DNA of 64,000 nucleotides from Verrucomicrobiota bacterium. Its GTDB lineage: Bacteria; Verrucomicrobiota; Verrucomicrobiia; Limisphaerales; VHDF01. Location: positions 7,174 to 71,173 of the forward strand of contig VHDF01000004.1 of assembly GCA_016871495.1 (NCBI GenBank), in the 5' to 3' direction. Position 1 is the stretch's first letter. The number at the start of each line of letters is the position of its first letter. The position numbers and the translations under genes were made by a program. The notes under the pieces were generated by a model that saw nothing but the letters and a program-made list of their open reading frames with translations, searched no databases and was not told where the DNA came from. This document shows, piece by piece, positions 1,972-53,311 of the stretch.

Positions 1972-2091
1972 TCCGGTCGTTGCGTGTTGTCGCGGAGCGT
2001 GTGAGGGTGCTCCCGCCTGCGTCGCGCGGCCTTTCGCCCCGTCTTTCTGCGACCCGTTTCAGCGACTGTCGGTGGCGAGGTGAGACTTGAG

Positions 2092-2432
2092 GTGGATCCA
2101 GAGGTTGGCGGTGACCGGGTTGTCGTGGTCACGCAGACAGCCCTGTCTGCTGTGGTGCAGGCTGCCCAGCCTGCGGGGCGACGAAGGGAACCAGGCCGCC
2201 TATTTCATGCACGGGACGCCCGGTGAGGACACCTGGCACAAACACAGAGGCAGGCGCGATGGTAGGCCGCGTGCCCTCACGCGGCAAACTGTCGCGGATT
2301 CAAGCTCAGTATGAATGATCCGGGCTGGGCGCGTGGAGAGCATGGATGGGCCTCGTTCTTCACCCGCCGGGCCGTCGGCGATACGGCAGGCTGGGCAGCC
2401 TGCGCCACACGACAGACCACTTCGGGATGCAC
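2092..2432 (+). mobile_element. MITE family B, copy B1 (full length, interrupted by nested element D1)
   Basis: Left end gtggatccagaggttggcggtgacc, right end cttcgggatgcac. Collinear with copy B3 except for a 129-bp insertion. Flanked by ggtgagacttg (2079-2089) and ggtgagaactg (2433-2443). Confidence 0.8.
2196..2324 (+). mobile_element. MITE family D, copy D1 (nested inside B1, right terminus diverged)
   Basis: About 129 bp, similar to 46943-47075 throughout (ccgcctatttca...ggtgaggacac...ggccgcgtgccctcacgcggca...attcaagctc). Confidence 0.75.
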
Positions 2433-2549
2433 GGTGAGAACTGGCACCTGCCCGGTTTCCGTTGACTTCAGCCGTGTGGCGCAACTAACGTTCAAAGGCC
2501 GTGGCCTTGTTCTCGTCGGGCTGAAAGGACGCAGTGCCGCGATCGAGTT

Positions 2550-4001
2550 ATGATTCGTGTTCTAGGATCCACGAACAGGGTATGCGGTGGTCTGACCCGC
2601 AGGGAAATGTTACGCGTCGGCGGCCTATCCCTGTTTGGCATGTCATTGCCGCAACTGCTTCGAGCCGAAGCGAGCCTTTCCACTGATCCGGGTCGTGGCA
2701 AAGCCAAGAGCGTCATCCTTCTTTTTCTCTTCGGTGGGCCGCCCGTTCAGGAGACGTTCGATCCCAAACCGGATGCACCGAGGGAATATCGTGGTGAATT
2801 CGGAAGCATTCGCACGAATGTCCCCGGCATCCATTTCTGCGAGTATCTGCCACGAATGGCCAAGTGGATGGACCGATCGACGTTGATCCGCTCGTTCACC
2901 CACGATTCCAACGACCACAGCGCCGGGCTGCTCCATACCATGACCGGTGTCGCACCCGAGCGGATCGAGTCCTTGGTTCCGATTCTTCCTACACAGGCCC
3001 CGGGCATGGGTGCCGTCCTTGAATACCTTGCGCGGGATGAGCGCCGGACAGCTCCAGCGTCGGTGTGGATGCCGTGTTATCCGGGATGGGGGCAGGACAT
3101 CTTTCGACCTGGCCCTTACGGTGGATACCTGGGTCGGAAGTATGATCCTCTGTTCACGCAATGCGTGATCACGGAGAAGTACGAAGCGAAGGATTTTTAC
3201 GACACTCGCATGGAGCCCGCGGGCCACGTGCAGGTGCCTTCGACCCTGCTGAACACGGAGATCACCTTGGATCGCTTTCATCAGCGAAGGTCACTGGTCG
3301 AGCAATTGCAGGCGGGTGCGGACCGCTTCCGCGGGGCGGATTACCAATCGTTCGACGATTTCCAGCGCAAAGCGTTCGAAATTCTATCCGATCGGCGCAC
3401 TGGCGAGAGTCCGTGGCGTGCGTTCGATCTCAGCGGGGAGTCCGCGGCATTGCGTGACCGTTATGGGCGGCACCTCTACGGCGAGTCGGCGCTGACCGCC
3501 CGGCGCTTGATCGAACGCGGCGTCCGCTTTGTGACCGTGTCGTGGGAGAGTTTCGAGAAACAAGGCAGTGATCCCACGGCATGGGACACGCATGAGCGGC
3601 ATTTCCCCGTCCTGCGGGATTTTCATTTGCCCGCACTGGATCAAGTTTACTCCGCGCTGTGCGAAGACCTGGAGTCGCGAGGTCTGCTCGATGAAACGTT
3701 GGTGGTCGTGATGGGCGAAATGGGGCGTTCGCCCAAGGTAAACGCCAAAGGGGGACGAGACCACTGGTCCTATTTGCAGAATGTCCTCCTGACCGGGGCG
3801 GGCGTGAAGCACGGGTTTACTTATGGCTCTTCGGATTACCGGGCGTTTCATGTCGAGTCGCACCCCGTTTCACCGGCGAATCTCATCGCCACCCTTTTCG
3901 CCGCGATGGGGATCGACCCTGGCACCATGCTCCACGGGGTGGATGGGCGCCCCCACCCCTTGGTTCCGGGGGGCGCTCCCGTCACGGAGGTCCTGGCATG
4001 A
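2550..4001 (+). CDS. DUF1501 domain protein (sulfatase-fold, Tat-type N-terminus)
   Basis: 483-aa ORF. TRREMLRVGGLSLFG N-terminus; VILLFLFGGPPVQETFDPKPDAP and GEMGRSPKVN..GGRDHW blocks are typical of DUF1501. Confidence 0.9.
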   Translation: MIRVLGSTNRVCGGLTRREMLRVGGLSLFGMSLPQLLRAEASLSTDPGRGKAKSVILLFLFGGPPVQETFDPKPDAPREYRGEFGSIRTNVPGIHFCEYLPRMAKWMDRSTLIRSFTHDSNDHSAGLLHTMTGVAPERIESLVPILPTQAPGMGAVLEYLARDERRTAPASVWMPCYPGWGQDIFRPGPYGGYLGRKYDPLFTQCVITEKYEAKDFYDTRMEPAGHVQVPSTLLNTEITLDRFHQRRSLVEQLQAGADRFRGADYQSFDDFQRKAFEILSDRRTGESPWRAFDLSGESAALRDRYGRHLYGESALTARRLIERGVRFVTVSWESFEKQGSDPTAWDTHERHFPVLRDFHLPALDQVYSALCEDLESRGLLDETLVVVMGEMGRSPKVNAKGGRDHWSYLQNVLLTGAGVKHGFTYGSSDYRAFHVESHPVSPANLIATLFAAMGIDPGTMLHGVDGRPHPLVPGGAPVTEVLA

Positions 4002-4830: not shown

Positions 4831-4952
4831 CATTCCCCTTCCCTCAACACGAAATCGAGCGGGCACGCGCCCACCGATGGCGGATGTCGGCCCAGGCTGC
4901 AAAGTGGTGGTTCATCGGGTGGCAGCATCTCAAACCCAACTGAATCGAGAGA

Positions 4953-5210
4953 GTCATCCTGATCTTGGTTCGTGGCCGGGATTCCCCCCCTCCGTGTCTT
5001 GGTGCCTCCGTGAGAACAAGGGCAACCGGCGCGCGGACTTCAGCCCGTTTCGACGTGGAAGAACACCAAGCACGGGATATGACCCACGTTCTCGATCTTC
5101 GACGCTGAAGCGGCGTGAACGCCGCGGTCCGAGCCGTGATGGAGCAGTGACGAGCGGACTAGGAAAGCGAGGGATCTCACGGAGACACGAAGGCACGGAG
5201 AGGGGATGAC
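4953..5210 (+). mobile_element. MITE family C, copy C1 (full length, about 258 bp)
   Basis: Termini gtcatcc / ggatgac. The subterminal inverted repeat ccctccgtgtcttggtgcctccgtgaga (left) pairs with tctcacggagacacgaaggcacggagagg (right). Flanked by atcgagaga (4944-4952) and atcgagggc (5211-5219). Confidence 0.75.
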
Positions 5211-5220
5211 ATCGAGGGCG

Positions 5221-5333
5221 GTGCATTCAGAGGTTGTCGGTGACCGGGTTGTCCTGGTAACGCAGACAGCCCTGTCTGCTGTGTCGCAGGCTGCCCAGCC
5301 TGCGGGGCGACGTAGGGAACCAGGAGCGTGGGG
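5221..5333 (+). mobile_element. MITE family B, copy B2 (left half only)
   Basis: gtgcattcagaggttgtcggtgaccgggttgtcctggtaacgcagacagccctgtctgc... is collinear with the left arm of B3 and diverges after gggaaccagg. Confidence 0.75.
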
Positions 5334-25237: not shown

Positions 25238-25300
25238 AGACTTATTACGGGTTAGTCGAACGAGGCGGCAAGCAGTTTCACCGCTCCCTCAGAAAGGTCG

Positions 25301-25515
25301 GTGCATCCAGAGGTTTTCGGTGACCGGGTTGTCGTGGTAACGCAGACAGCCCTGTCTGCTGTTTCGCAGGCTGCCTGGCCTGCGGGGCGACGAAGGGAAC
25401 CAGGCGTGTGGAGAACAGGGCAGGGCCTCGTTCTTCACCCGCCGGGCCGACGGGCCGTCGGCGATACGGCAGGCTGGGCAGCCTGCGCCACACGACAGAC
25501 ATCTTCGGGATGCAC
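25301..25515 (+). mobile_element. MITE family B, copy B3 (intact reference copy, 215 bp)
   Basis: Termini gtgcatccagaggtt / cttcgggatgcac. Arms are complementary (caggctgcctggcctgc vs gcaggctgggcagcctg). Internal hairpin gcagacagccctgtctgc. Flanked by cagaaaggtc (25290-25299) and cagaaagctc (25518-25527). Confidence 0.85.
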
Positions 25516-25588
25516 GGCAGAAAGCTCGCCGTTGGGATGAGCGCCCACCATCGGAAACCCACACATGACGAAAAGACAGTCGGCTGGG

Positions 25589-25960
25589 GATGACTCAACG
25601 ATGTTGCAGGCTTCTACGGACTCCCTTCGGTGCGCCCTCATCGAGGCCGACCGCGTGGACGGCATGGTCGCCTTACCCGGCCAACTCTTCAACCGCACCC
25701 AGATTCTCGTCCGCCTCTGGTTCTTCGCGAAAAGCCAAGCCGACGGCGATACCTTCGAGGAAAAGATGCCGCGCCTCGTCGCCGAACGACAGGGTCAGTT
25801 CGCAGAGTCGGCCAGACTTGAAAGGTCCAGGCTACAATTGAACGCACTGGCCACAGCCCAGTCTGGCCGCCGTAGCTTTGGCGGAGGCGGGTTCGCCGAG
25901 TCCACGAAAAGGGAAGCCGCTATACGCGCCAGCCTAAAGAGGCTAGACTGCAACCTATGA
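25589..25960 (+). pseudogene. hsdM: type I restriction-modification methyltransferase (HsdM) C-terminal remnant
   Basis: [36 protein letters not shown] matches the conserved [33 protein letters not shown] block. TFEEKMPRLVAERQGQFAESARLE matches the HsdM tail. There is an internal deletion and a duplicated tail, and no N-terminal body. Confidence 0.7.
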
Positions 25961-26361
25961 GCAAAGCACGATTCACCGAGCGTCAGGCCGACGTGCGCGA
26001 GAGTGCCGCCCGCCTTGCCGAAGCAGTGGCCCAACCGGAAAGCGATCTTATCCGCGACGCCACCATCCACCGCTTTGAGTTCACCTTTGAAGTCGTGTGG
26101 AAGACCCTCAAGCTCTACCTCGAACGTCAGGGGCACGAATGTGGCGGGCCACGGCCGACGCTCAAGAAGGCCTTCGCCGAGAACCTGATCTCTACCACCG
26201 AAGAAGCCGACCGCTGGTTCCAGATGCTCGAAGAGCGCAACCTCACCAGCCACGCCTACGATGAAGCCCTCGCCATCCAAATCTACCGACACATCGTGCA
26301 AGACTACGCTCCCTTGCTCGGTGGCATGGCGGAGAGGATCCAAACCCTGAAATGGGACTGA
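25957..26361 (+). CDS. HEPN-domain nucleotidyltransferase substrate-binding protein (HI0074 family, HepT-like toxin)
   Basis: 134 aa. Rx4H motif RNLTSH at about 26236-26253. The ATGA start/stop overlap with the hsdM remnant fits the usual position inside type I R-M operons. Confidence 0.85.
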   Translation: MSKARFTERQADVRESAARLAEAVAQPESDLIRDATIHRFEFTFEVVWKTLKLYLERQGHECGGPRPTLKKAFAENLISTTEEADRWFQMLEERNLTSHAYDEALAIQIYRHIVQDYAPLLGGMAERIQTLKWD

Positions 26362-26365
26362 CCGC

Positions 26366-26683
26366 ATGAAGACCCTCGCCCTCCGCGAACGAGACCTTGC
26401 CATGCTACGCCGCACCTTCCGCTCATTCCCGTGCGTACGTTCTGTGCACCTCTTCGGCTCACGCGCCACCGGCCACGCCCGCCGCACCTCCGACATTGAT
26501 CTCGCCATCTCCGCCCCGGGCGCCACCATCGACGAGTGGCTGGCACTGACCGATGCGCTCGACGAAGCCCCCATCATCTACGAGTTCGACGTCGTCCGCA
26601 CCGAACGCGCGCACAACCCCCGGCTTCTCGAAAGGATCGCCCGCGAAGGCGTGCTCATCTATCCAGAGCACCCCATCGCATAA
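26366..26683 (+). CDS. minimal nucleotidyltransferase (MNT, MntA-like antitoxin partner)
   Basis: 105 aa. LFGSRATGHARRTSDIDLAI = the GSx(n)DxD NTase motif. Starts 4 nt after the HEPN gene. Confidence 0.85.
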   Translation: MKTLALRERDLAMLRRTFRSFPCVRSVHLFGSRATGHARRTSDIDLAISAPGATIDEWLALTDALDEAPIIYEFDVVRTERAHNPRLLERIAREGVLIYPEHPIA

Positions 26684-26926
26684 AGCCAAGATCGAGTTGA
26701 ACCGGCGGATGAATTCTAAGCCGCCTCGTTCTTCGACACTCTTGCGACCCGCACCTTCGAGTTCTCCTGGCCGCGAAGGAAGTTCTGCGCGCCTTCGATG
26801 AGCAGGTGAAGCTGTTGTTCCAGTAAATCCACGTCAACCTCCACCCATCCCGTTCCTCGACCCCATTCTCACCGCTTGGGCTTTCGACCGGGAGGTTGAT
26901 GCATTGTGTCGTGCCTCTCCCGCCCA

Positions 26927-27056
26927 GTGCATCCCGATGTTGCCGGTGATGCAGGTAGGGCGCGTCCGTCCCGGCGCGCCCCCGGAGCATGATGTTTTGC
27001 ATCCCGTGGGCGGCGGGCTGGGACAGGCCCGCCCTACCAACAACATCGGGATACAC
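26927..27056 (+). mobile_element. MITE family A, copy A1 (130 bp)
   Basis: TIR gtgcatcccgatgttg / caacatcgggatacac. Flanked by tctcccgccc at 26916-26925 and 27059-27068. Confidence 0.9.
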
Positions 27057-27120
27057 GGTCTCCCGCCCCTCACGCCATTTTCACATTGCGGCTGCACGGG
27101 CCCCGAGCGACACTCCAGGC

Positions 27121-28647
27121 ATGTTCGCCAAGGTGTGTGCGGCCGCGGTTCAGGGGATTGACGCGTACCCTGTCGAGGTCGAAGTGAATTCCGGATGGGG
27201 TGACACCAATGTGGTCATTGTGGGCCTTCCCGACGCCGCCGTGCGCGAATCGCGCGACCGCGTGGGCACCGCCTTGTCCAATTCCGGCTTCAAATTCCCC
27301 ATGGGCAAAACCACGATCAATCTGGCCCCGGCGGATATCAAAAAGGAAGGACCCAGCTTCGACTTGCCCATCGCCTTGGGACTGCTCGCCGCCAGCGGCC
27401 AGGTCGAAACGGATCTGCTGGAGGATTTCGTCATCACGGGAGAACTCGCGCTGACCGGCGCCGTGAGGCCTGTGAAAGGCGCGCTCGCCATTGCCCTGCG
27501 AGCCAAAGCCGAGGGGCGGCGCGGCATCCTGCTTCCCGCGGAGAACGCCAATGAGGCCGGTGTCGTCCGGGGCATCGAAGCCATTCCGATTCGAAATCTG
27601 CGGGAAGCCTCCGAGTTTCTTGAGGGCGCGCGCGCGCTGCCGGCTGTTCACCTCAACGCCGAACAAATGTTTGATGCGCCCCTGGAGGACGATGTGGATT
27701 TCGCGGAGGTCAAGGGGCAGGAATCGGTGAAGCGCGCCTTGGAAATCGCCGCCGCCGGCGGGCACAACGCGCTGCTGATCGGCCCTCCTGGCACGGGCAA
27801 ATCGATGCTTGCCCGCCGGCTCCCCACCATTCTCCCGCCCCTCACCCTTGATGAGGCCCTCGAAACCACCAGGATTCATAGTGTCACCGGGCTGCTGGAA
27901 GCGCACCAGGCCTTGGTCACTCGACGACCCTTTCGTTCCCCTCATCACACGGCCAGCGATGCCGGATTGTTGGGCGGCAACGCGCATCCGACCCCTGGAG
28001 AAATCTCGCTCGCCCATCATGGCGTGCTCTTCCTGGACGAACTGCCTGAGTTCAAACGAAGCGTGCTCGAAACGATGCGACAACCCCTCGAAGAAGGTCG
28101 CGTCACCATCTCTCGTGCCGCCGGTAGCGTCACGTTCCCTTCCCAATTCATGCTCGTCGCGGCCATGAATCCCTCCCCGGACGGCAAGATGCCTGGTGAA
28201 TCGCGCTGCTCGCCTCGCGAAATTCAGAATTACCTGGGACGCGTTTCCGGTCCGCTCCTGGATCGCATCGATTTGCATGTCGAAGTGCCGGCGGTTCCGT
28301 TCAAGGACATGGCCGCCGCAGCGCCGGGGGAAACTTCCGCTGCCATCCGAGCCCGCGTGATCACGGCCCGCCATCGCCAGCAGGAGCGATTCAAGAACCG
28401 GCCTCGCCTCACTTGCAACGCGCGCATGGGTGCGCGAGATCTCAAGCAATACTGCCCTCTCGACACCACCTGCCTCGATCTCTTGAAGGCGGTGATGACG
28501 GATCAGAATCTGAGCGCCCGAGCCTACGATCGTATCATCAAAGTCGCGCGCACCATCGCCGACCTAGCCGGGCAGGAAACCATCAACCCCGACCACGTCG
28601 GGGAAGCCATCGGCTTTCGATCCTTGGACCGGCAGATCTGGTCGTAA
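27121..28647 (+). CDS. comM: YifB/ComM family Mg-chelatase-like ATPase
   Basis: MFAKVCAAAVQGIDAYPVEVEVN...DLPIALGLLAASGQ (Lon-like N-domain); Walker A GPPGTGKSMLARR. Start at ATG 27121; the track's 5' extension runs through MITE A1. Confidence 0.92.
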   Translation: MFAKVCAAAVQGIDAYPVEVEVNSGWGDTNVVIVGLPDAAVRESRDRVGTALSNSGFKFPMGKTTINLAPADIKKEGPSFDLPIALGLLAASGQVETDLLEDFVITGELALTGAVRPVKGALAIALRAKAEGRRGILLPAENANEAGVVRGIEAIPIRNLREASEFLEGARALPAVHLNAEQMFDAPLEDDVDFAEVKGQESVKRALEIAAAGGHNALLIGPPGTGKSMLARRLPTILPPLTLDEALETTRIHSVTGLLEAHQALVTRRPFRSPHHTASDAGLLGGNAHPTPGEISLAHHGVLFLDELPEFKRSVLETMRQPLEEGRVTISRAAGSVTFPSQFMLVAAMNPSPDGKMPGESRCSPREIQNYLGRVSGPLLDRIDLHVEVPAVPFKDMAAAAPGETSAAIRARVITARHRQQERFKNRPRLTCNARMGARDLKQYCPLDTTCLDLLKAVMTDQNLSARAYDRIIKVARTIADLAGQETINPDHVGEAIGFRSLDRQIWS

Positions 28648-28812
28648 CGCGGACACACAGGCCTTCCCCCCCATTCGCGGCAAATTCCAACCCGTCGCCG
28701 ACGTCCAGGCTCAGACCCTCTGACCTTGAAGGGGGGGAAGGGTGGGGCGTGGAACGAAAAGGAGCCGCAATGAGGAGGTCTTGGATTTTTCGGAAGCGGC
28801 AGGAGCGAGGGA

Positions 28813-28950
28813 GTGATCCTGATCTTGATTCGTGACCGGGATTCCGTCCCTCCGTGTCTTGGTGCCTCCGTGAGAAACTTGGCCATCGGCGCGCGGGCTT
28901 CAGCCCGCTTCGACGTGGAACAACACCGAGCGCAGGGCATGAGCCGACGG
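28813..28950 (+). mobile_element. MITE family C, copy C2 (left part only)
   Basis: gtgatcctgatcttgattcgtgaccgggattccgtccctccgtgtcttggtgcctccgtgaga... is collinear with 4953-5090. The right arm is missing. Confidence 0.7.
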
Positions 28951-30552: not shown

Positions 30553-30640
30553 AGCAAAAACGGTTCGGGGTTAGGGCGACCACTCTCGACCCGATCTCCA
30601 CGAAAGGCAACGAAAAGCCTCGATCGCCGACCTTGGCCGG

Positions 30641-30769
30641 TTCATCCCGATGTTGCCGGTGATGCAGGTAGGGCGCGTCCGTCCCGGCGCGCCGCCGGAG
30701 CATGATGTTTTGCATCCAGCGGGCGGCGGGCTGGGACAGGCCCGCCCTACCAACAACATTGGGATACAC
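30641..30769 (+). mobile_element. MITE family A, copy A2
   Basis: Same 130-bp consensus. Flanked by the 19-nt direct repeat gaccttggccggttcatcc (30629-30647 / 30772-30790); the second copy doubles as the left end of B4. Confidence 0.9.
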
Positions 30770-30782
30770 GGGACCTTGGCCG

Positions 30783-30941
30783 GTTCATCCAGAGGTTGTC
30801 GGTGACCGGGTTGTCGTGGTCACGCAGACAGCCCTGTCTGCTGTGGTGCAGGCGGCCCAGCCTGCGGGGCGACGAAGTGAACCCGGCGCGTGGAGATCAT
30901 GGAAGGGCCTCGTTCTTCACCCGCCGGGCCGATGGGCCGAC
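30783..30941 (+). mobile_element. MITE family B, copy B4 (left arm plus centre, right arm lost)
   Basis: gttcatccagaggttgtcggtgaccgggttgtcgtggtcacgcagacagccctgtctgc... is collinear with B3 up to cacccgccgggccga. Confidence 0.8.
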
Positions 30942-31099
30942 GCGCACCGTTCAACCCGCCCCGCGTGTAGGCCTTGGCCCTGGCAACACCCATGTCCTTG
31001 CACCTGCCATGCCCCTGCGAAGACATATCCGAAACGGCGTGAACGCCGCGGTCCGAACGGCATCCTGCGAACGCGCCGGATCCACCGGGCCGGCCGGCG

Positions 31100-33541: not shown

Positions 33542-33626
33542 AACGATCGGCTGGGGTGTTGTGCGTCGATCCTAAGCAAATCCTTGGCGGCCCGAAAATC
33601 AAAAAGAACGCGCGAGATCCGTTCCG

Positions 33627-33756
33627 GCGCATCCCGATGTTGCCGGTGATGCAGGTAGGGCGCGTCCGTCCCGGCGCGCCGCCGGAGCATGATTTTTTGC
33701 ATCCAGTGGGCGGCGGGCTGGGACAGGCCCGCCCTACCAACAACATCGGGATACAC
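33627..33756 (+). mobile_element. MITE family A, copy A3
   Basis: Flanked by gatccgttc at 33616-33624 and 33759-33767. Confidence 0.9.
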
Positions 33757-33765
33757 GGGATCCGT

Positions 33766-34341
33766 TCACCGCAGGACGACGCCCATCCCCGGAGCTTCGA
33801 CATATTCTGCCTCATGGCCTTCAGACTGTTCGCCGTTCTTCAGACACCGCGCTTTGAGGTGAATTCGTCCGTCAGGCAAGAATTCCATCACGGTTCGCAC
33901 CTCGGTAATGCCCCGAGGATGGCCCATGACCTCTTCCGTCGTCATGATCTTGTCCTTCGCCATGACCAGGACTCCACGCGCGAAAAACCCCGCCGTGGTG
34001 AAGTAGTACGATTCCAACCGCAGGGTCTTGACGTTCCAGACAATCGTGGTTTCTCCACCATACTCGCCTTGGTTGACCGAATGCACCACCCGGATCGCAT
34101 GACCGTTGAGGATGCGTTCCCAGCGCACGACATCGACGATCGGCTTTTCGCCGGGTCCGCCCTTGAATTCGCCTCGCCACGTCTTGCCGACCAAACGTTT
34201 CAGCGGATCCAGAGGGGGGGCCAAACTTCGTTCCGGCTCAGCCGCAGCCAGATCGCTGAAGCCGCAAAAAAGAATGACCAGCAGAATCGCCGGTCGTGGG
34301 GAATAGCCGGCGAAGGCACCTCGAATGAAGAAAAAGTTCAT
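33766..34341 (-). CDS. secreted hypothetical protein
   Basis: Start at ATG 34341 (MNFFFIRGAFAGYSPRPAILLVILFCGFSDLAAAEP signal). 191 aa. No family recognised. Confidence 0.65.
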   Translation of the reverse strand: MNFFFIRGAFAGYSPRPAILLVILFCGFSDLAAAEPERSLAPPLDPLKRLVGKTWRGEFKGGPGEKPIVDVVRWERILNGHAIRVVHSVNQGEYGGETTIVWNVKTLRLESYYFTTAGFFARGVLVMAKDKIMTTEEVMGHPRGITEVRTVMEFLPDGRIHLKARCLKNGEQSEGHEAEYVEAPGMGVVLR

Positions 34342-35921: not shown

Positions 35922-36073
35922 GGAGAAGGAAAGGACCGGGATCGAGATGTTGACTTGAGGCGGAGACCACTGTGAGGCGCCCGAAGAAGCCGTGGGCTCG
36001 ACGATCAAGAGTATCTCTGACCCTCCGGAGTTCTGACCACGGAAAACCGACTTGTTGAATCGGCACCGGTCCC

Positions 36074-36203
36074 GTGTATCCCGATGTTGGTGGTAGGGCG
36101 GGCCTGTCCCAGCCCGCCGCCCGCTGGATGCAAAACATCATGCTCCGGCGGCGCGCCGGGACGGACGCGCCCTACCTGCATCACCGGCAACATCGGGATG
36201 CAC
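36074..36203 (-). mobile_element. MITE family A, copy A4 (inverted orientation)
   Basis: Flanked by cggcaccggtc at 36061-36071 and 36204-36214. Confidence 0.9.
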
Positions 36204-36443
36204 CGGCACCGGTCTCCGCTCAATTTTCCACCTTGCCAGGCGAACCGGAGACGCTACTCTCCCGTCCGCCTGGAAGCCGTGAGTGCGGTTTTCAATGAGG
36301 CTGAGAAAAGTCGTTCAACCAACAACCTAACCTCAACCCTCCGTTGCCTACGCAACGTTTGGTCCCGTTAGGGCAATGGAGTCTTCAAAGGGACCCTCGT
36401 CCCCCCAAAGCCTCCCGTCGTTACCGTTCATCATCATTCCGTT

Positions 36444-38126
36444 ATGCTGACCATGGAAGAAGCCTTGCGGCAGAGCAATATGCGCTTTGCCGCCGGCGAA
36501 ATCGTCAAAGGCACCGTCATCGAACTTCGTCCCAAAGAAGTTCTGGTGGACATCGGTTACAAGAGCGAAGGATCCATCCCCGGTTCCGAATTCGCGGACA
36601 TCAAGACCGTCAAGCTTGGAGACCAAGTGGATGTCCTGATCGAGAAACTTGAGGACAAGGAAGGCATGGTCGTCCTGTCCAAGGAAAAGGCGGAATTCAA
36701 ACAGAACTGGGAGAAAATCCTCACCATTTGCAATGAAGGCGGCACCATCAACGGCAAGGTCAAGGCGGTGGTCAAAGGAGGCTTGATCGTCAATATCGGG
36801 GTCGAGGCTTTCCTGCCCGCTTCCCAAATCGACATCGTTCCGCCCCGCAATCTGAACGGCTTCGTCGGCAACACCTACGCTTTCAAGGTCGTCAAGATCA
36901 ACCAAGAGCGGCAAAATATCGTCCTCTCCCGCCGGGAACTCATTGAGCAGGAACGCAACGAACGACGTCTCAAGCTTCTCTCGGAGATGACCCCGGGCGA
37001 TATTCGCAAGGGCACCGTCAAGAACATCACCGACTTCGGCGCTTTCATTGACCTCAACGGTCTTGACGGCCTTCTTCACATCACCGACATGTCCTGGGGC
37101 CGGATCGGCCACCCCTCGGAAATGCTCAAGGTCGGGCAGGAAATCGACGTCGTCGTGCTCGATATCAACCGGGAGAAGGAACGCGTCAGCCTCGGTCTCA
37201 AGCAAAAGTTGGCCAACCCCTGGGACAGCATCGAGTCCAAGTATCCCATCGGAACCCGCGTCAAAGGCAAGATCGTCAACCTGGTTCCCTACGGCGCATT
37301 CGTCGAACTCGAACCGGGTGTCGAAGGACTCGTCCACGTCACCGAACTCTCCTGGACCAAGCGCATCGCCAAGCCTTCGGACGTGCTCAAGCAGGAACAA
37401 GAGGTCGAAGCGGTGGTGCTCGGCATCAACCGGGATGAGCAAAAGATCTCCCTCGGCATCCGCCAACTGGAGACCAATCCTTGGGACAAAGCCCTCGAAA
37501 AATATCCCCACAACACCAAGGTCAAAGGCAAGGTCCGCAACCTCACCAGTTACGGCGCCTTCATCGAACTCGAAGAAGGCCTCGACGGCATGGTTCATGT
37601 GTCCGACATTTCCTGGACCCGCAAGATCAACCATCCCTCGGAAGTGCTGAAGAAGGGCGACGAGGTCGAGGTGATGGTGCTCGAAATCGACAAGGCGAAC
37701 CAGCGCATTTCAGTCGGCATCAAACAGCTCAGCGAAGATCCCTGGAAGAACATCGACCAGTTCTACAAAGTGGGCGATCTGGTCTCGGGCAAGGTCACCA
37801 AACTCGCCAGTTTCGGCGCGTTCGTCGGCCTCCAGCACGACATCGATGGCTTGGTTCACATCTCCCAGGTCAGCGAGGAGCGCGTGGACAAAATCAAGAA
37901 CGTGCTCAAGGTCGGCCAGGATGTGAATGCCCGCGTCATCAAGATCGACAAAGGCGACCGCCGCATCGGCCTGTCCATCAAAGCGGCGAACTACTCGCCC
38001 GAGCAACTCAAAGCCGAGCAAGCCATGTTGGATTCCCTCAAGCCGGGTGAAGACCTCGTGGCCCTGCAACACGCCTTCGACGCGGCGGACGATGCCCGCG
38101 AAAAGGACGTCAAGGGCCCCGAGTAG
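36444..38126 (+). CDS. rpsA: 30S ribosomal protein S1
   Basis: 560 aa with six S1 (OB-fold) repeats, e.g. GEIVKGTVIELRPKEVLVDIGYKSEG and GTVKNITDFGAFIDLNGLDGLLHITD. Confidence 0.95.
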   Translation: MLTMEEALRQSNMRFAAGEIVKGTVIELRPKEVLVDIGYKSEGSIPGSEFADIKTVKLGDQVDVLIEKLEDKEGMVVLSKEKAEFKQNWEKILTICNEGGTINGKVKAVVKGGLIVNIGVEAFLPASQIDIVPPRNLNGFVGNTYAFKVVKINQERQNIVLSRRELIEQERNERRLKLLSEMTPGDIRKGTVKNITDFGAFIDLNGLDGLLHITDMSWGRIGHPSEMLKVGQEIDVVVLDINREKERVSLGLKQKLANPWDSIESKYPIGTRVKGKIVNLVPYGAFVELEPGVEGLVHVTELSWTKRIAKPSDVLKQEQEVEAVVLGINRDEQKISLGIRQLETNPWDKALEKYPHNTKVKGKVRNLTSYGAFIELEEGLDGMVHVSDISWTRKINHPSEVLKKGDEVEVMVLEIDKANQRISVGIKQLSEDPWKNIDQFYKVGDLVSGKVTKLASFGAFVGLQHDIDGLVHISQVSEERVDKIKNVLKVGQDVNARVIKIDKGDRRIGLSIKAANYSPEQLKAEQAMLDSLKPGEDLVALQHAFDAADDAREKDVKGPE

Positions 38127-46942: not shown

Positions 46943-47075
46943 CCCGCCTATTTCACGCACGAGACGCCCGGTGAGGACACCGGGCCTCCAAACAGAGAGG
47001 CCGTCGCGATTATAGGCCGCGTGCCCTCACGCGGCACGCTTTCCCGAATTCAAGCTCGAGTGTGAAATAGGCGGG
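46943..47075 (+). mobile_element. MITE family D, copy D2 (133 bp, perfect 14-bp TIR)
   Basis: cccgcctatttcac ... gtgaaataggcggg. Begins at the nucleotide after the sulfotransferase stop codon. Confidence 0.8.
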
Positions 47076-47672: not shown

Positions 47673-48000
47673 GCCTTGGTCTCGACCGTTCCGCCCCAGA
47701 CTTCAAGCAGGAAATGAGAGATCCAAACTGCGGGCGCCAGGGCCAACTGAAATCCTCGGAGCGAGGAGCCGACCCACTGCGGACCGGACTCGAACCGGCA
47801 GGCCGACGGCAGATTTTTGGCGGGCTATACAATGCAACGATGCCGGGGCGAACAGCCGCACACCGGGATGACGGGGGGTCGGTCAGAAAAGACGGTGTTC
47901 CGATCGGAACCTCATTTGTGTCCGTGCCGCCGCGATGACCCGCAACCGCCCACGCCGATTCGCACCTGCACTCGGTTCGAATCCTTTCATCCGCGTCTCC

Positions 48001-48139
48001 GTGTATCCCGATGTTGTTGGTAGGGCGGGCCTGTTCCAGCCCGCCGCCCACGGGATGCAAAACATCATGCTCCGGCGGCGCGCCGGGACGGACGCGCCCT
48101 ACCTGCATCACCGGCAACATCGGCAACATCGGGATACAC
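48001..48139 (-). mobile_element. MITE family A, copy A5 (139 bp, internal 9-bp duplication)
   Basis: Flanked by tccgcgtctcc (47990-48000) and tccgcgtttcc (48142-48152). cggcaacat is duplicated at 48112-48129. Confidence 0.9.
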
Positions 48140-48185
48140 CGTCCGCGTTTCCGAAGCAGCTTCATCGCTTGAGTAAATCACGACG

Positions 48186-50773: not shown

Positions 50774-53311
50774 ATGGTCAGGAATTTTGTTCACGCGTCG
50801 CGGAGGCGGTCCGCCTCGCAATTCCTCTGGTTCGTCGGCCTGGTGTTCGCCGTGGCACCCTTGCTGAGAGCCCAGTTCTCAGCGCTTCCCTTGCGTGTTT
50901 TCTCCGAAAACGTGCAGATGGGCGCCGAACCCCGCACCACGTTGGTCCTCGGCCGCGACGGCATGCTTTACGGAGCCACCCTGCTGGCGGGTGGCACGCT
51001 CAAAGGCACGCTTTTTCGCATGCGGACGGACGGAGGCGATTATCGTATCCTTCACCGATTCACCTCGACCGAGCCGGATCTTGGCTCGAGTCCCTACGGG
51101 CGGCTGCTCGAAGCCGGGGACGGGCATTTCTACGGCACCACCTACGAGGGAGGGCCCGCTAATCGTGGTGTCATTTATCGACTGGAACGCGGGACCTGGG
51201 TTTTCACCGTCTTGCACGCTTTCACGGGCGGAACCAACGACGCCGCCAAACCCTACGGAGGTTTGGTCGAGGGCAGTGACGGCGCACTCTACGGGACCAC
51301 ATTCCTGGGTGGCGCGTCCAACCGAGGATCCTTTTTCAGGATTCGCAAGGACGGCACGGGCTTCGCGGCGCTCAAGCATTTCAGCGATGCGCCGGGCGAC
51401 GCGTCGCAGCCCACATCGACATTGCTCAAGGGTTCCGACGGGCGATTCTACGGCACTTCCTATCTTGGCGGCGCGTCCAGCATTGGAACGGTGTTCCGCA
51501 TCCAAGAGGATGGTTCGGGCTTCACTCTTCTGCAAAGTTTCACCGGACAAGGCGGGGATGGATCCTATCCGTTCGGCGGCTTGATCGAAGGGGTCGATGG
51601 ATTGCTCTACGGCACGACCTCCGCGGGCGGCCAGAGTCAGTTTGGAACCCTTTTCAAGCTGGGAAAGGATGGTTCCGGCTACACCTTGTTGCATCGCTTC
51701 AACACTCTGGAGGCGGGTGGACATCAGCCCTACGGCGAGCTCTTCCAGGCCAGGAGCGGATTGTTGTATGGCACCACTGCGTTCGGGGGGACCAACGATC
51801 AAGGGACGGTGTTTCAAATTGCCACCAACGGCACTTCTTACATCATTCACCGGCGCTTTCAGGGCGGACTCGCTGATGGCGCCGTTTCTTACGCGGGGCT
51901 GGCGCAAGATGCAGACGGATGGTTGCACGGCGTCGCCGTGACCGGAGGATCCGTCGACTCGGGCCTGGCGTTTCGAATGCGGCCTGATGGTTCGGGTTAT
52001 TCGATCTCGCATCAATTCGCCGGCACCGAGGGGGAAGCAGCGAGCCCCTACACCGCCCTGATCGAGGGGCGGGACGGAATCCTTTACGGAACGACCTTCC
52101 AAGGCGGCCACACCAATTTGGGCACCATTTTCCGAGTCAATCGAGACGGTGGAGATTACCGCATCTTGCACAGCTTCAGCGGTCCGGATGGGTCACAGCC
52201 CTACGCTGGGGTCATCGAAACCCGGGACGGATTCCTGTTCGGTGCCGCCGGGGGCGGAGGTCAGCGCAACGCGGGAACCCTTTTTCGACTCCACAAGGAT
52301 GGATCGGGATTCGCGGTCTTGAAACATTTCGAGGGCACCGTCCAGGACGGCATGATCCCTTTCGGGCGGTTGCTCGAAGCCGACGACGGCATGATCTATG
52401 GCACCACCTCGGGCGACGTGGGCACTGCAAACTACGGCACTTTGTTCAGGCTGCGCCCGGACGGTTCAGCCTACCAGGTATTGCGAACGTTCTCCGGCAC
52501 CGGAGGCGGCGGAACACAGCCGTTCGGCGGTCTCGTGCAGGGACCAGGCGGCTGGCTCTATGGCACCACCGCCTACCGGGATGCCACCAATAACGGGACG
52601 ATCTTTCGTGTAGGCAAAGACGGATCCGGCTTCAGCACCCTTCATGCCTTTGGAGATCGTCCGGAGGATGGAACCTTTCCGTTCCACGGACTCACTCTGG
52701 CTTCCGACGGCTTCCTCTATGGCACCACGTTTTCGGGAGGTTTGACCCAGCACGGCACGATTTTTCGGATCCGCCCCAGCAGCGACAATTACGAAGTGCT
52801 GCACCGCTTCCGCGGGGGGCCGGTCGATGGATCACTCCCCTCTGCGAACGCAGGCTTGGTCGAGGGCAAGGATGGGGCGCTCTACGGAGTGACTTACAGC
52901 GGAGGAGTATCCAATCTCGGAACCGTTTACCGCCTGGCCAAGGGCGGTGGACCGGTGTCCATCCTTACGCATTTCACGGGCAACACGAGAGCCGGAGCTC
53001 AGCCCTATGGTGGGCTGACGATCGCTCGGGACGGTTTGATCTATGGCACGACGCATAGCGGCGCGGCCGGATGCGGAGCTTTGTTTGTGCTGGGGCCGGA
53101 AGCCACGCTGGCGTTTTCGCCACCGTCAAACGTCAGGTTGCTTGGACCGAACGGTCGGCGATTCTCCCTGCAGACCTCGGAAGATTTATCGAATCCGAAC
53201 GGTTGGCGCTCCCTGAGCGAACTCACCATCATTGAGGGAGTCGCCCTTTACTCGGACCCCGCGGCGAACGGTATCTCCCAGCGATTCTATCGCGCCGTGT
53301 GGAAACCGTGA
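50774..53311 (+). CDS. GloVer (Gloeobacter/Verrucomicrobia) tandem-repeat protein
   Basis: 845 aa. About 14 tandem ~47-aa units of the form LYGTT..GG...GT(I/L/V)FR...DGSG..(V/I)LH.F.G. Signal-like N-terminus. The tail ends QRFYRAVWKP. Confidence 0.88.
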   Translation: MVRNFVHASRRRSASQFLWFVGLVFAVAPLLRAQFSALPLRVFSENVQMGAEPRTTLVLGRDGMLYGATLLAGGTLKGTLFRMRTDGGDYRILHRFTSTEPDLGSSPYGRLLEAGDGHFYGTTYEGGPANRGVIYRLERGTWVFTVLHAFTGGTNDAAKPYGGLVEGSDGALYGTTFLGGASNRGSFFRIRKDGTGFAALKHFSDAPGDASQPTSTLLKGSDGRFYGTSYLGGASSIGTVFRIQEDGSGFTLLQSFTGQGGDGSYPFGGLIEGVDGLLYGTTSAGGQSQFGTLFKLGKDGSGYTLLHRFNTLEAGGHQPYGELFQARSGLLYGTTAFGGTNDQGTVFQIATNGTSYIIHRRFQGGLADGAVSYAGLAQDADGWLHGVAVTGGSVDSGLAFRMRPDGSGYSISHQFAGTEGEAASPYTALIEGRDGILYGTTFQGGHTNLGTIFRVNRDGGDYRILHSFSGPDGSQPYAGVIETRDGFLFGAAGGGGQRNAGTLFRLHKDGSGFAVLKHFEGTVQDGMIPFGRLLEADDGMIYGTTSGDVGTANYGTLFRLRPDGSAYQVLRTFSGTGGGGTQPFGGLVQGPGGWLYGTTAYRDATNNGTIFRVGKDGSGFSTLHAFGDRPEDGTFPFHGLTLASDGFLYGTTFSGGLTQHGTIFRIRPSSDNYEVLHRFRGGPVDGSLPSANAGLVEGKDGALYGVTYSGGVSNLGTVYRLAKGGGPVSILTHFTGNTRAGAQPYGGLTIARDGLIYGTTHSGAAGCGALFVLGPEATLAFSPPSNVRLLGPNGRRFSLQTSEDLSNPNGWRSLSELTIIEGVALYSDPAANGISQRFYRAVWKP

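Follow-up and report, generated by a model that had tools for sequence, protein, structure and literature searches.

Prokaryotic Mutator-like elements have inverted repeats of 18–39 bp that carry a conserved terminal C, and the direct repeats at their flanks measure 8 or 9 bp (Guerillot et al. 2014, PMC3942029). The TnGBS and ISLre2 elements, together with 13 insertion sequences (ISs) of the ISKra4 group, insert upstream of sigma-A promoters, and ISKra4-group elements whose repeats are 83–100% complementary are found in either orientation (PMC3942029). Here we consider a stretch of 64,000 nucleotides (the window) from contig VHDF01000004.1 of a Verrucomicrobiota bacterium (assembly GCA_016871495.1, positions 7,174 to 71,173), in which a short repeat, family A, is present in five copies (A1–A5) that are ~97% identical. 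Family A is very probably a 134-bp miniature transposable element with inverted repeats (MITE) whose ends are recognized by the ISKra4-like (p-MULT 4) Mutator-like transposase of a 2.2-kb IS and which tends to land upstream of promoters.

An earlier reading of this DNA, made from the letters alone (the sequence-only reading), had proposed five copies of a 130-bp foldback element. All five are present where they had been placed, and a five-way alignment gives a conserved block of 134 bp (143 bp in A5), in which an invariant C at the terminus plus 2 nt on the left side, and GG on the right, are included. The element runs from CGGTGCATCCCGATGTTG, with the invariant C first, to CAACATCGGGATACACGG. 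Its 16-nt terminus, GTGYATCCCGATGTTG, has 17 matches in the window at up to 3 mismatches compared with 1.09 expected by chance; ten of these matches are the two ends of the five A copies, and most of the others are ends of a second family, B. The terminal inverted repeats, CGGTGCATCCCGATGTTG and CCGTGTATCCCGATGTTG, match at 16 of 18 positions and can be written over ~18–23 bp as C(G/C)GTG(C/T)ATCCCGATGTTG(TTGGT), with the terminal C invariant at both ends. The element stays under the ~500 bp that delimits MITEs and has no coding capacity of its own, and only spurious overlapping open reading frames (ORFs) cross its 134 bp. An internal 9-bp duplication that had been read in A5 is also present, as CCGATGTTG twice in tandem at 48115–48132, inside the left inverted repeat of that copy. 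The length of this tandem duplication equals that of the target duplication described below, and one could speculate that it is the footprint of an insertion into the A5 end that has since been lost.

Each of the five window copies has its own, locus-specific direct repeat, as had been reported; the reported lengths of 9–19 bp do not stand, the duplications being uniformly 9 bp. In the repeats given as 10–11 bp, element bases or a chance extra C had been counted in, and the 19-bp repeat at A2 takes in the start of a neighboring related element, B4, because the 9-bp target of A2 abuts the left end of B4, which also starts CGGTTCATCC. The window duplications match at 9 of 9 positions in A1–A4 and at 8 of 9 in A5. 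A metagenome scan for further copies, with CSGTGYATCCCGATGTTG as query, gave at least 77 loci, and among the matches listed are ten further distinct A insertions, the duplications of which match at 9, 7, 8, 8, 9, 9, 8, 9, 9, and 9 of 9 positions. All 15 independent A insertions, in other words, carry a 9-bp duplication matching at 7 or more positions, a match for which the chance at this spacing is ~0.0024 per site. The situation in which most copies would be without direct repeats is not what is seen, and the proposal of a foldback MITE with locus-specific duplications gains support from these 15 insertions. The 15 complete, distinct copies (two more are partial) are 95.5–100% identical in pairwise comparison, with a mean of 97.4%, and differ mostly by changes private to one copy. 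This pattern is that expected of a recent transposition burst and is unlike that of a conserved RNA gene.

An IS with ends beginning GTGCATCC and duplications of 9–11 bp had been suggested as the partner to look for. Such an IS was found on Verrucomicrobia contigs: a 2.2-kb ISKra4-like element with 9-bp duplications. Full-length elements of 2,196–2,272 bp with the same terminus are present in other Verrucomicrobia. In contig L057, a distance of 2,196 bp separates the two termini, and two ORFs lie between them, the first matching Pfam DruA/DUF4338 (E 3.7e-27) and the second encoding a 414-aa transposase that fits NCBIfam NF033572 best (ISKra4 family; E 2e-56, 192 bits, positions 23–421 of 422). 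The closest annotated relatives of these transposases are cyanobacterial ISKra4 transposases at ~27% identity. A protein search returned 844 transposase homologs at E ≤1e-20, most of them 414 aa long and on contigs of ~2.2–2.6 kb; two of the best 120 of the 844 have a named source, and both are from Verrucomicrobia metagenome-assembled genomes (MAGs). In longer contigs, the pair of DUF4338 and transposase genes is kept between the same ends, and in L085, L087, L089, and L093 the IS has a perfect 9-bp duplication on its flanks.

The ends of the IS are those of the MITEs. At 22 of 23 positions, the ends of L057 and L093, CSGTGCATCCCGATGTTGTTGGTGG, agree with the right ends of A1, A3, and A5; the left ends of the IS and of A are identical at 18 of 18, the terminal C being included at both ends; and ends of the L085/L087 type match the right end of B1 at 16 of 16. 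Among the matches listed, the ISKra4-like IS is the sole type of coding element with this terminus. Because A and the IS have both their ends and their 9-bp duplications in common, this kind of transposase most likely moves A in trans, and the mobilizer of A would then be an ISKra4-family transposase. Although L057 itself seems to have no duplication, it is an assembly chimera, and the partner of its left flank is the flank to the right of L090 (both CCGCCCGCC). L023 is rejected as an IS: its termini are 1,453 bp apart with no transposase inside, and its two ends therefore belong to separate things. As a side observation on the IS, a DUF4338/DruA-like gene (270–304 aa) is present in every full-length element, just upstream of and overlapping the transposase gene. 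The DUF4338 domain has been described as GNAT-like (PMC10853773), and it is possible that the protein has a role in target choice by the IS.

Insertion of family A is most likely directed to a fixed site upstream of predicted promoters. Over the 64 flanks of 32 insertions, 19 have a TTG starting exactly 19 nt past the duplication (28 nt when counted from the element end), where the TTG background is 0.017 per position (P ~1e-18, or ~6e-17 when corrected for 55 positions). When family A is taken alone, 9 of 15 insertions have a TTG at this offset on at least one side (P ~2.5e-10), and the box may face either end of the element. At four sites, full-length ISs also have a TTG at this offset, and one of the four is upstream of rplM-rpsI. 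Matches to a −10 hexamer at 16–18-nt spacing are better in TTG flanks than in the others (mean 3.3 of 6 vs 2.1 of 6; Mann-Whitney P 1.7e-4), and TTG flanks have 61% A+T in the −10 window compared with 38% in the spacer. There are also near-misses: L042, with TTG one position nearer; L046, with TTTCAC and then TACAAT; and L060, with GTGACA. In the window, the Pfam-supported genes that lie on the TTG side and are oriented away from the element are the ComM-like, aldehyde dehydrogenase, and rpsA genes and, at B1, the DUF1501 gene; a crude test of outward ORFs was uninformative in this GC-rich DNA. On these features, the TTG boxes are putative promoters that may be active.

At several sites (A1, A5, L025, L046, L055, and L077), an in-frame ATG of a long ORF is situated 53–55 nt past the duplication. 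These ATGs are ~7 nt downstream of the −10-like hexamer, at the place expected for a transcript start, and their placement suggests leaderless mRNAs in this organism; the enrichment is marginal (6 of 19 vs 6 of 45, P 0.09).

The arrangement of neighboring elements bears on the same question. At 4 of the 15 A insertions (A2, L046, L077, and L078), the 9-bp target abuts a related element already in place, with an offset of 0–1 from its end. The offset is 0 in A2, L046, and L077, where the resident end matches the terminus consensus at 14 of 15 positions (background ~0.1%); for L078 it is 1, and the match is 11 of 15 (background for that or better ~1.3%). A third, slightly more degenerate copy of the 9-mer is found beyond the resident element in L046, in L077, and at A2/B4 in the window, and in L046 this third copy is preceded by another degenerate terminus. 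In every stack, the new A copy has the resident element on one side and the TTG or −10 box on the other. Ordered stacks on the same 9 bp are expected if the promoter fixes the target. Attraction of new copies to resident ends instead of promoters was also considered and was rated lower, since the new copy always has the TTG or −10 box on its far side.

These observations can be accommodated in the following scheme. The transposase would be supplied in trans, encoded by the IS of other Verrucomicrobia. Cutting would take place at the terminal C, with integration across a 9-bp staggered target that is then duplicated, and a circular copy-out/paste-in intermediate may be formed, by analogy with IS256 and TnGBS. 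Targets are not hit at random: the 9-bp target would be set 18 bp upstream of a TTG-type −35 hexamer, which places the hexamer 27 bp from the element end, and targeting could operate on either side of the element because its two ends are nearly identical. As a consequence of such fixed-offset target choice, copies would gather just upstream of promoters and leave genes unhit, and repeat hits on one promoter would reuse the same 9 bp, producing ordered stacks in which the newest copy is nearest the promoter. The copies may also influence expression.

Could family A instead be a structured RNA or regulatory hairpin under selection (REP/BIME-like, a terminator, an mRNA stabilizer, or a noncoding RNA gene) and not a transposon? 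The long hairpin that had been proposed from the complementary arms is borne out and is very stable whichever strand is folded (−83.9 and −86.6 kcal/mol, with z-scores of −6.4 and −7.9), and the five A copies are all intergenic, with A3 starting 8 nt past a stop codon. However, each copy is flanked by a 9-bp duplication of its own, its ends are identical to the ends of an IS that bears a transposase, and no T-run follows the stem. A search of the whole window with Rfam at the gathering threshold gave no match, and when the 12 distinct sequences are folded to a consensus, compensatory changes are seen at 0 of the 49 stem pairs, whereas 8 of the 49 are each broken by substitution in one copy; both results agree with the earlier rejection of a conserved noncoding RNA gene. 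The other classes rejected by the sequence-only reading can be left aside as well. REP/BIME elements are imperfect palindromes of ~35–40 bp that lack target duplications and are linked to a RAYT transposase, whereas family A measures 134 bp with 9-bp duplications, and no RAYT association was seen for it. CRISPR arrays consist of short repeats at regular intervals with unique spacers of 25–50 bp, whereas the A copies are 2.4–12 kb apart with genes between them. A selected hairpin in place of a transposon is thus, in our judgment, highly improbable, and a transposon origin could be compatible with later co-option of copies as RNA or regulatory hairpins.

Several results weigh against an ISKra4-type MITE that homes to promoters, and some of them would fit two other explanations. 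One of these keeps the MITE and assigns it to another transposase family that makes 8–9-bp duplications (IS256, ISLre2, IS1, or IS4/IS903-type), the shared terminus reflecting convergence or distant ancestry. As had been noted before, no autonomous element lies in the window: tblastn finds no transposase or IS remnant there, and the transposase-bearing ISs come from other Verrucomicrobia. The likeness of MITE and IS is confined to the terminal 18–23 bp, with none beyond. The transposases match NF033572 at E 5e-49 to 2e-56, but their scores of 167–192 bits are under the curated cut-off of 205, and the ISH6 and ISLre2 models match too, if far more weakly (ISLre2 E 1e-14 to 1e-16). This explanation is nonetheless improbable given the identity of the ends on left and right, terminal C included, the 9-bp duplication common to MITE and IS, the unusual TTG offset common to their flanks, and the single IS type found as a coding element with this terminus among the matches listed. 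The other explanation also accepts the MITE and holds that the TTG at +19 is a DNA-sequence preference of the transposase, or attraction to resident ends, and not promoter recognition. A strict sigma-70 consensus scan calls none of the proposed promoters; the ATG enrichment is marginal, as given above; and 4 of 15 insertions adjoin resident ends. To this can be added that 6 of the 15 A insertions, including A3, L009, and L012 as well as the near-misses L042, L046, and L060, have no TTG at the offset and that the offset is 27 bp compared with the 13–17 bp reported for this transposase group. In favor of promoter recognition, the AT-rich −10-like hexamer at 16–18 nt is enriched on the TTG side only, annotated genes on that side read away from the element, in all stacks the box and the resident element are on opposite sides of the new copy, and this transposase lineage has been documented to target promoters (PMC3942029). 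A sequence preference without promoter recognition consequently seems rather unlikely to us, although it deserves some weight, and we retain homing upstream of promoters as the best explanation.

To the same set of contrary results belongs the empty site, which the sequence-only reading had suggested looking for in related genomes. Look-ups with the exact proteins of rpsA, the BamB-like gene, and the MNT gene found, among the contigs with flanking genes, only contigs that have the MITE or break inside it, and the nearest relatives, with RpsA at ~90% identity, are not syntenic; no empty site was found. The missing empty site reflects a lack of suitable data and does not point to immobility. Independent short-read assemblies (Logan, ENA contigs L094–L100) stop once they have run ~30 nt into A1, A3, or the A2/B4 pair, and such repeats fragment short-read assemblies of this organism. 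A plasmid search of PLSDB with the element gave no match. A genome-contig collection in which the window species with A is not represented was scanned with both termini and gave only an unrelated hairpin in a Bdellovibrio sp. MAG (L001, 4084–4207). That hairpin is AT-rich, ~120 bp long, and has arms starting with the same 12-mer, ATCCCGATGTTG; it is without the GTGCATCC end, and the shared 12-mer is therefore probably coincidence.

Table 1. Coordinates of family A and B copies, their duplications, and the predicted promoter features beside them; positions refer to the window except where an IS contig is named.
Feature	Position	Strand	Description
A1	26925-27058	+	134-bp MITE copy; ends CAGTGCATCC (left) and GGGATACACGG (right)
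A1 target-site duplication	26916-26924 and 27059-27067		TCTCCCGCC, 9/9 matching
A1 promoter-like site	27086-27123	+	TTGCGG 27086-27091, 19 nt after duplication; 17-nt spacer; GACACT 27109-27114
A1-side ATG	27121		in frame with Mg-chelatase/ComM-like ORF; putative promoter
A2	30638-30771	+	134-bp MITE copy; duplications GACCTTGGC at 30629-30637 and 30772-30780
A2 box	30610-30605	-	TTGCCT; faces aldehyde dehydrogenase gene, start 30552
A3	33625-33758	+	134-bp MITE copy; duplications GATCCGTTC at 33616-33624 and 33759-33767
A3 box			none at canonical offset; TTGATT 5 nt closer, left side
A4	36072-36205	-	134-bp MITE copy; duplications GCACCGGTC at 36063-36071 and 36206-36214
A4 box	36233-36238		TTGCCA; 16-nt spacer; TACTCT 36255-36260; upstream of rpsA, ATG 36444
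A5	47999-48141	-	143-bp copy; duplications TCCGCGTCT (47990-47998) / TCCGCGTTT (48142-48150), 8/9 matching
A5 box	48169-48174		TTGAGT; in-frame ATG 48204 opens 464-codon ORF
B1	2090-2434	+	345-bp MITE; duplications TGAGACTTG / TGAGAACTG, 7/9; nested ~125-bp insertion
B1 box	2462-2467		TTGACT; upstream of DUF1501 gene (2550-4001)
B2	5219-5325	+	truncated B copy, left end only
B3	25299-25517	+	219-bp MITE; duplications CAGAAAGGT / CAGAAAGCT, 8/9
B3 box			TTGCCG, 19 nt past left duplication
B4	30781-30968	+	older related element abutting A2 right duplication; right end degenerate
Third target copy beyond B4	30969-30977		GGCCTTGGC, 8/9
DUF4338/DruA-like gene	L057 207-1121; L085 2144-3004; L087 2144-3004		

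Family A is accompanied in the window by related repeats. Family B is a second MITE family, of 219–345 bp and of one terminus superfamily with A, with A-related ends CGGTGCATCCAGAGGTTG and CCGTGCATCCCGAAG and duplications that are imperfect 9-mers matching at 7–8 of 9 positions. A third family, C, measures ~138 bp and has two copies that are ~85% identical (4950–5087 and 28810–28947), with inverted ends GAGTCATCCTGATCTTGG and GGGTCATATCCCGTGCTTGG that resemble the A and B termini. A fourth repeat of ~125 bp is found at 46944–47070 and at 2196–2320, where it is nested in B1; B3 is uninterrupted at that point and therefore serves as an empty site for this insertion. Further short families with an A-type terminus and 9-bp duplications, of 90, 137–146, 161–162, and 307 bp, are present among the matches listed. 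Their contigs are from many further JGI, ENA, and TARA samples, which we take, from the sample series, to be from peat, soil, sediment, and microbial mats.

The rpsA of the window (36444–38126) is 100% identical to a Verrucomicrobia MAG protein, and contigs with this rpsA are found in JGI samples 3300020193, 3300020074, and 3300020578, which by their sample series are presumably Lake Tanganyika metagenomes; we assume the same origin, on the same grounds, for the contigs of the ten further A insertions. A1 has a HepT/MNT pair on one side and a ComM-like gene on the other, and A2 is flanked by genes for an APH-like protein and an aldehyde dehydrogenase. A3 is upstream of a BamB-like gene, A4 of rpsA, and A5 of an ORF of 464–470 codons. 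The HepT-like and MNT (nucleotidyltransferase) genes form a toxin-antitoxin pair at 25957–26683, before which is a short ORF (25565–25960) with a fragmentary N6-DNA-methylase match. Elsewhere in the window, an 845-aa ORF at 50774–53311 contains at least 6 copies of a repeat unit spaced at 159 nt (53 aa), with the recurring motif P(Y/F)G…L(I/V)E…DG…(Y/F)G(T/A).

As far as the searched literature shows, no MITE derivatives of the ISKra4 transposase lineage have been described, and to our knowledge family A is new and is the first MITE tied to this lineage. The kind of element and the principle of promoter targeting are already known, and our understanding of how MITEs work is unchanged. What is gained is the assignment of an anonymous repeat family of an uncultured Verrucomicrobium to a specific transposase lineage and, with it, an extension of promoter-targeted transposition (TnGBS, ISLre2, ISKra4) to non-autonomous elements, to a new phylum, and to another offset. 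Ordered stacks that reuse one 9-bp target provide a simple genomic signature of site-directed integration, and the flanks of A are candidate promoter positions for a group without experimental promoter data.

A broader proposal, to which we give an even chance, is that these elements represent an undescribed superfamily of promoter-homing MITEs and ISKra4-like parents across Verrucomicrobia of lakes, peat, soil, and sediment, integrating exactly 27 bp upstream of the −35 hexamer, with ordered stacks that record insertion history. The distance of 27 bp would be one helical turn beyond the ~16 bp of TnGBS/ISLre2. If this proposal is right, the copies would be natural promoter markers, many of them apparently for leaderless genes, in an uncultured phylum, and the offset would suggest a transposase that reads sigma factor or RNA polymerase bound at the promoter in another register.

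Several known systems are close to family A. Like Correia/CREE of Neisseria, RUP, ERIC, and Nezha MITEs, it is short, noncoding, multicopy, and intergenic, has inverted repeats and a foldback structure, and most likely depends on an IS transposase in trans. Those classical bacterial MITEs derive from other IS families and mostly have 2-bp duplications (TA for Correia) or duplications of other lengths, and we know of none that is tied to ISKra4 or to a fixed promoter offset. Eukaryotic Pack-MULEs are members of the Mutator superfamily with ~9-bp duplications and a preference for the 5′ ends of genes (PMC3942029), but they are much larger and carry captured gene fragments. The TnGBS integrative and conjugative elements and ISLre2 (p-MULT 3) are likewise DDE elements placed at a fixed distance upstream of a sigma-A −35 hexamer with 8–9-bp duplications; they belong to another transposase clade, are inserted in one orientation 15–17 bp from the −35 hexamer, and are large coding elements and not MITEs. 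The closest system is the ISKra4 group (p-MULT 4). Family A differs from it in having no transposase and only its ends in common with the IS, and in a −35-like box that is 27 bp from the element end compared with the published 13–17 bp; the partner IS differs in its distant transposase (~27% identity, below the NCBI cut-off) and in its extra DUF4338/DruA-like gene. The ISKra4 model is the best fit for the transposase of the partner IS, at scores under the cut-off. With that group are shared repeats of 18–25 bp in A and the IS with a terminal C, 9-bp duplications, and, with A ends that match at 16 of 18 positions, insertion in either orientation beside predicted promoters of the sigma-A type.

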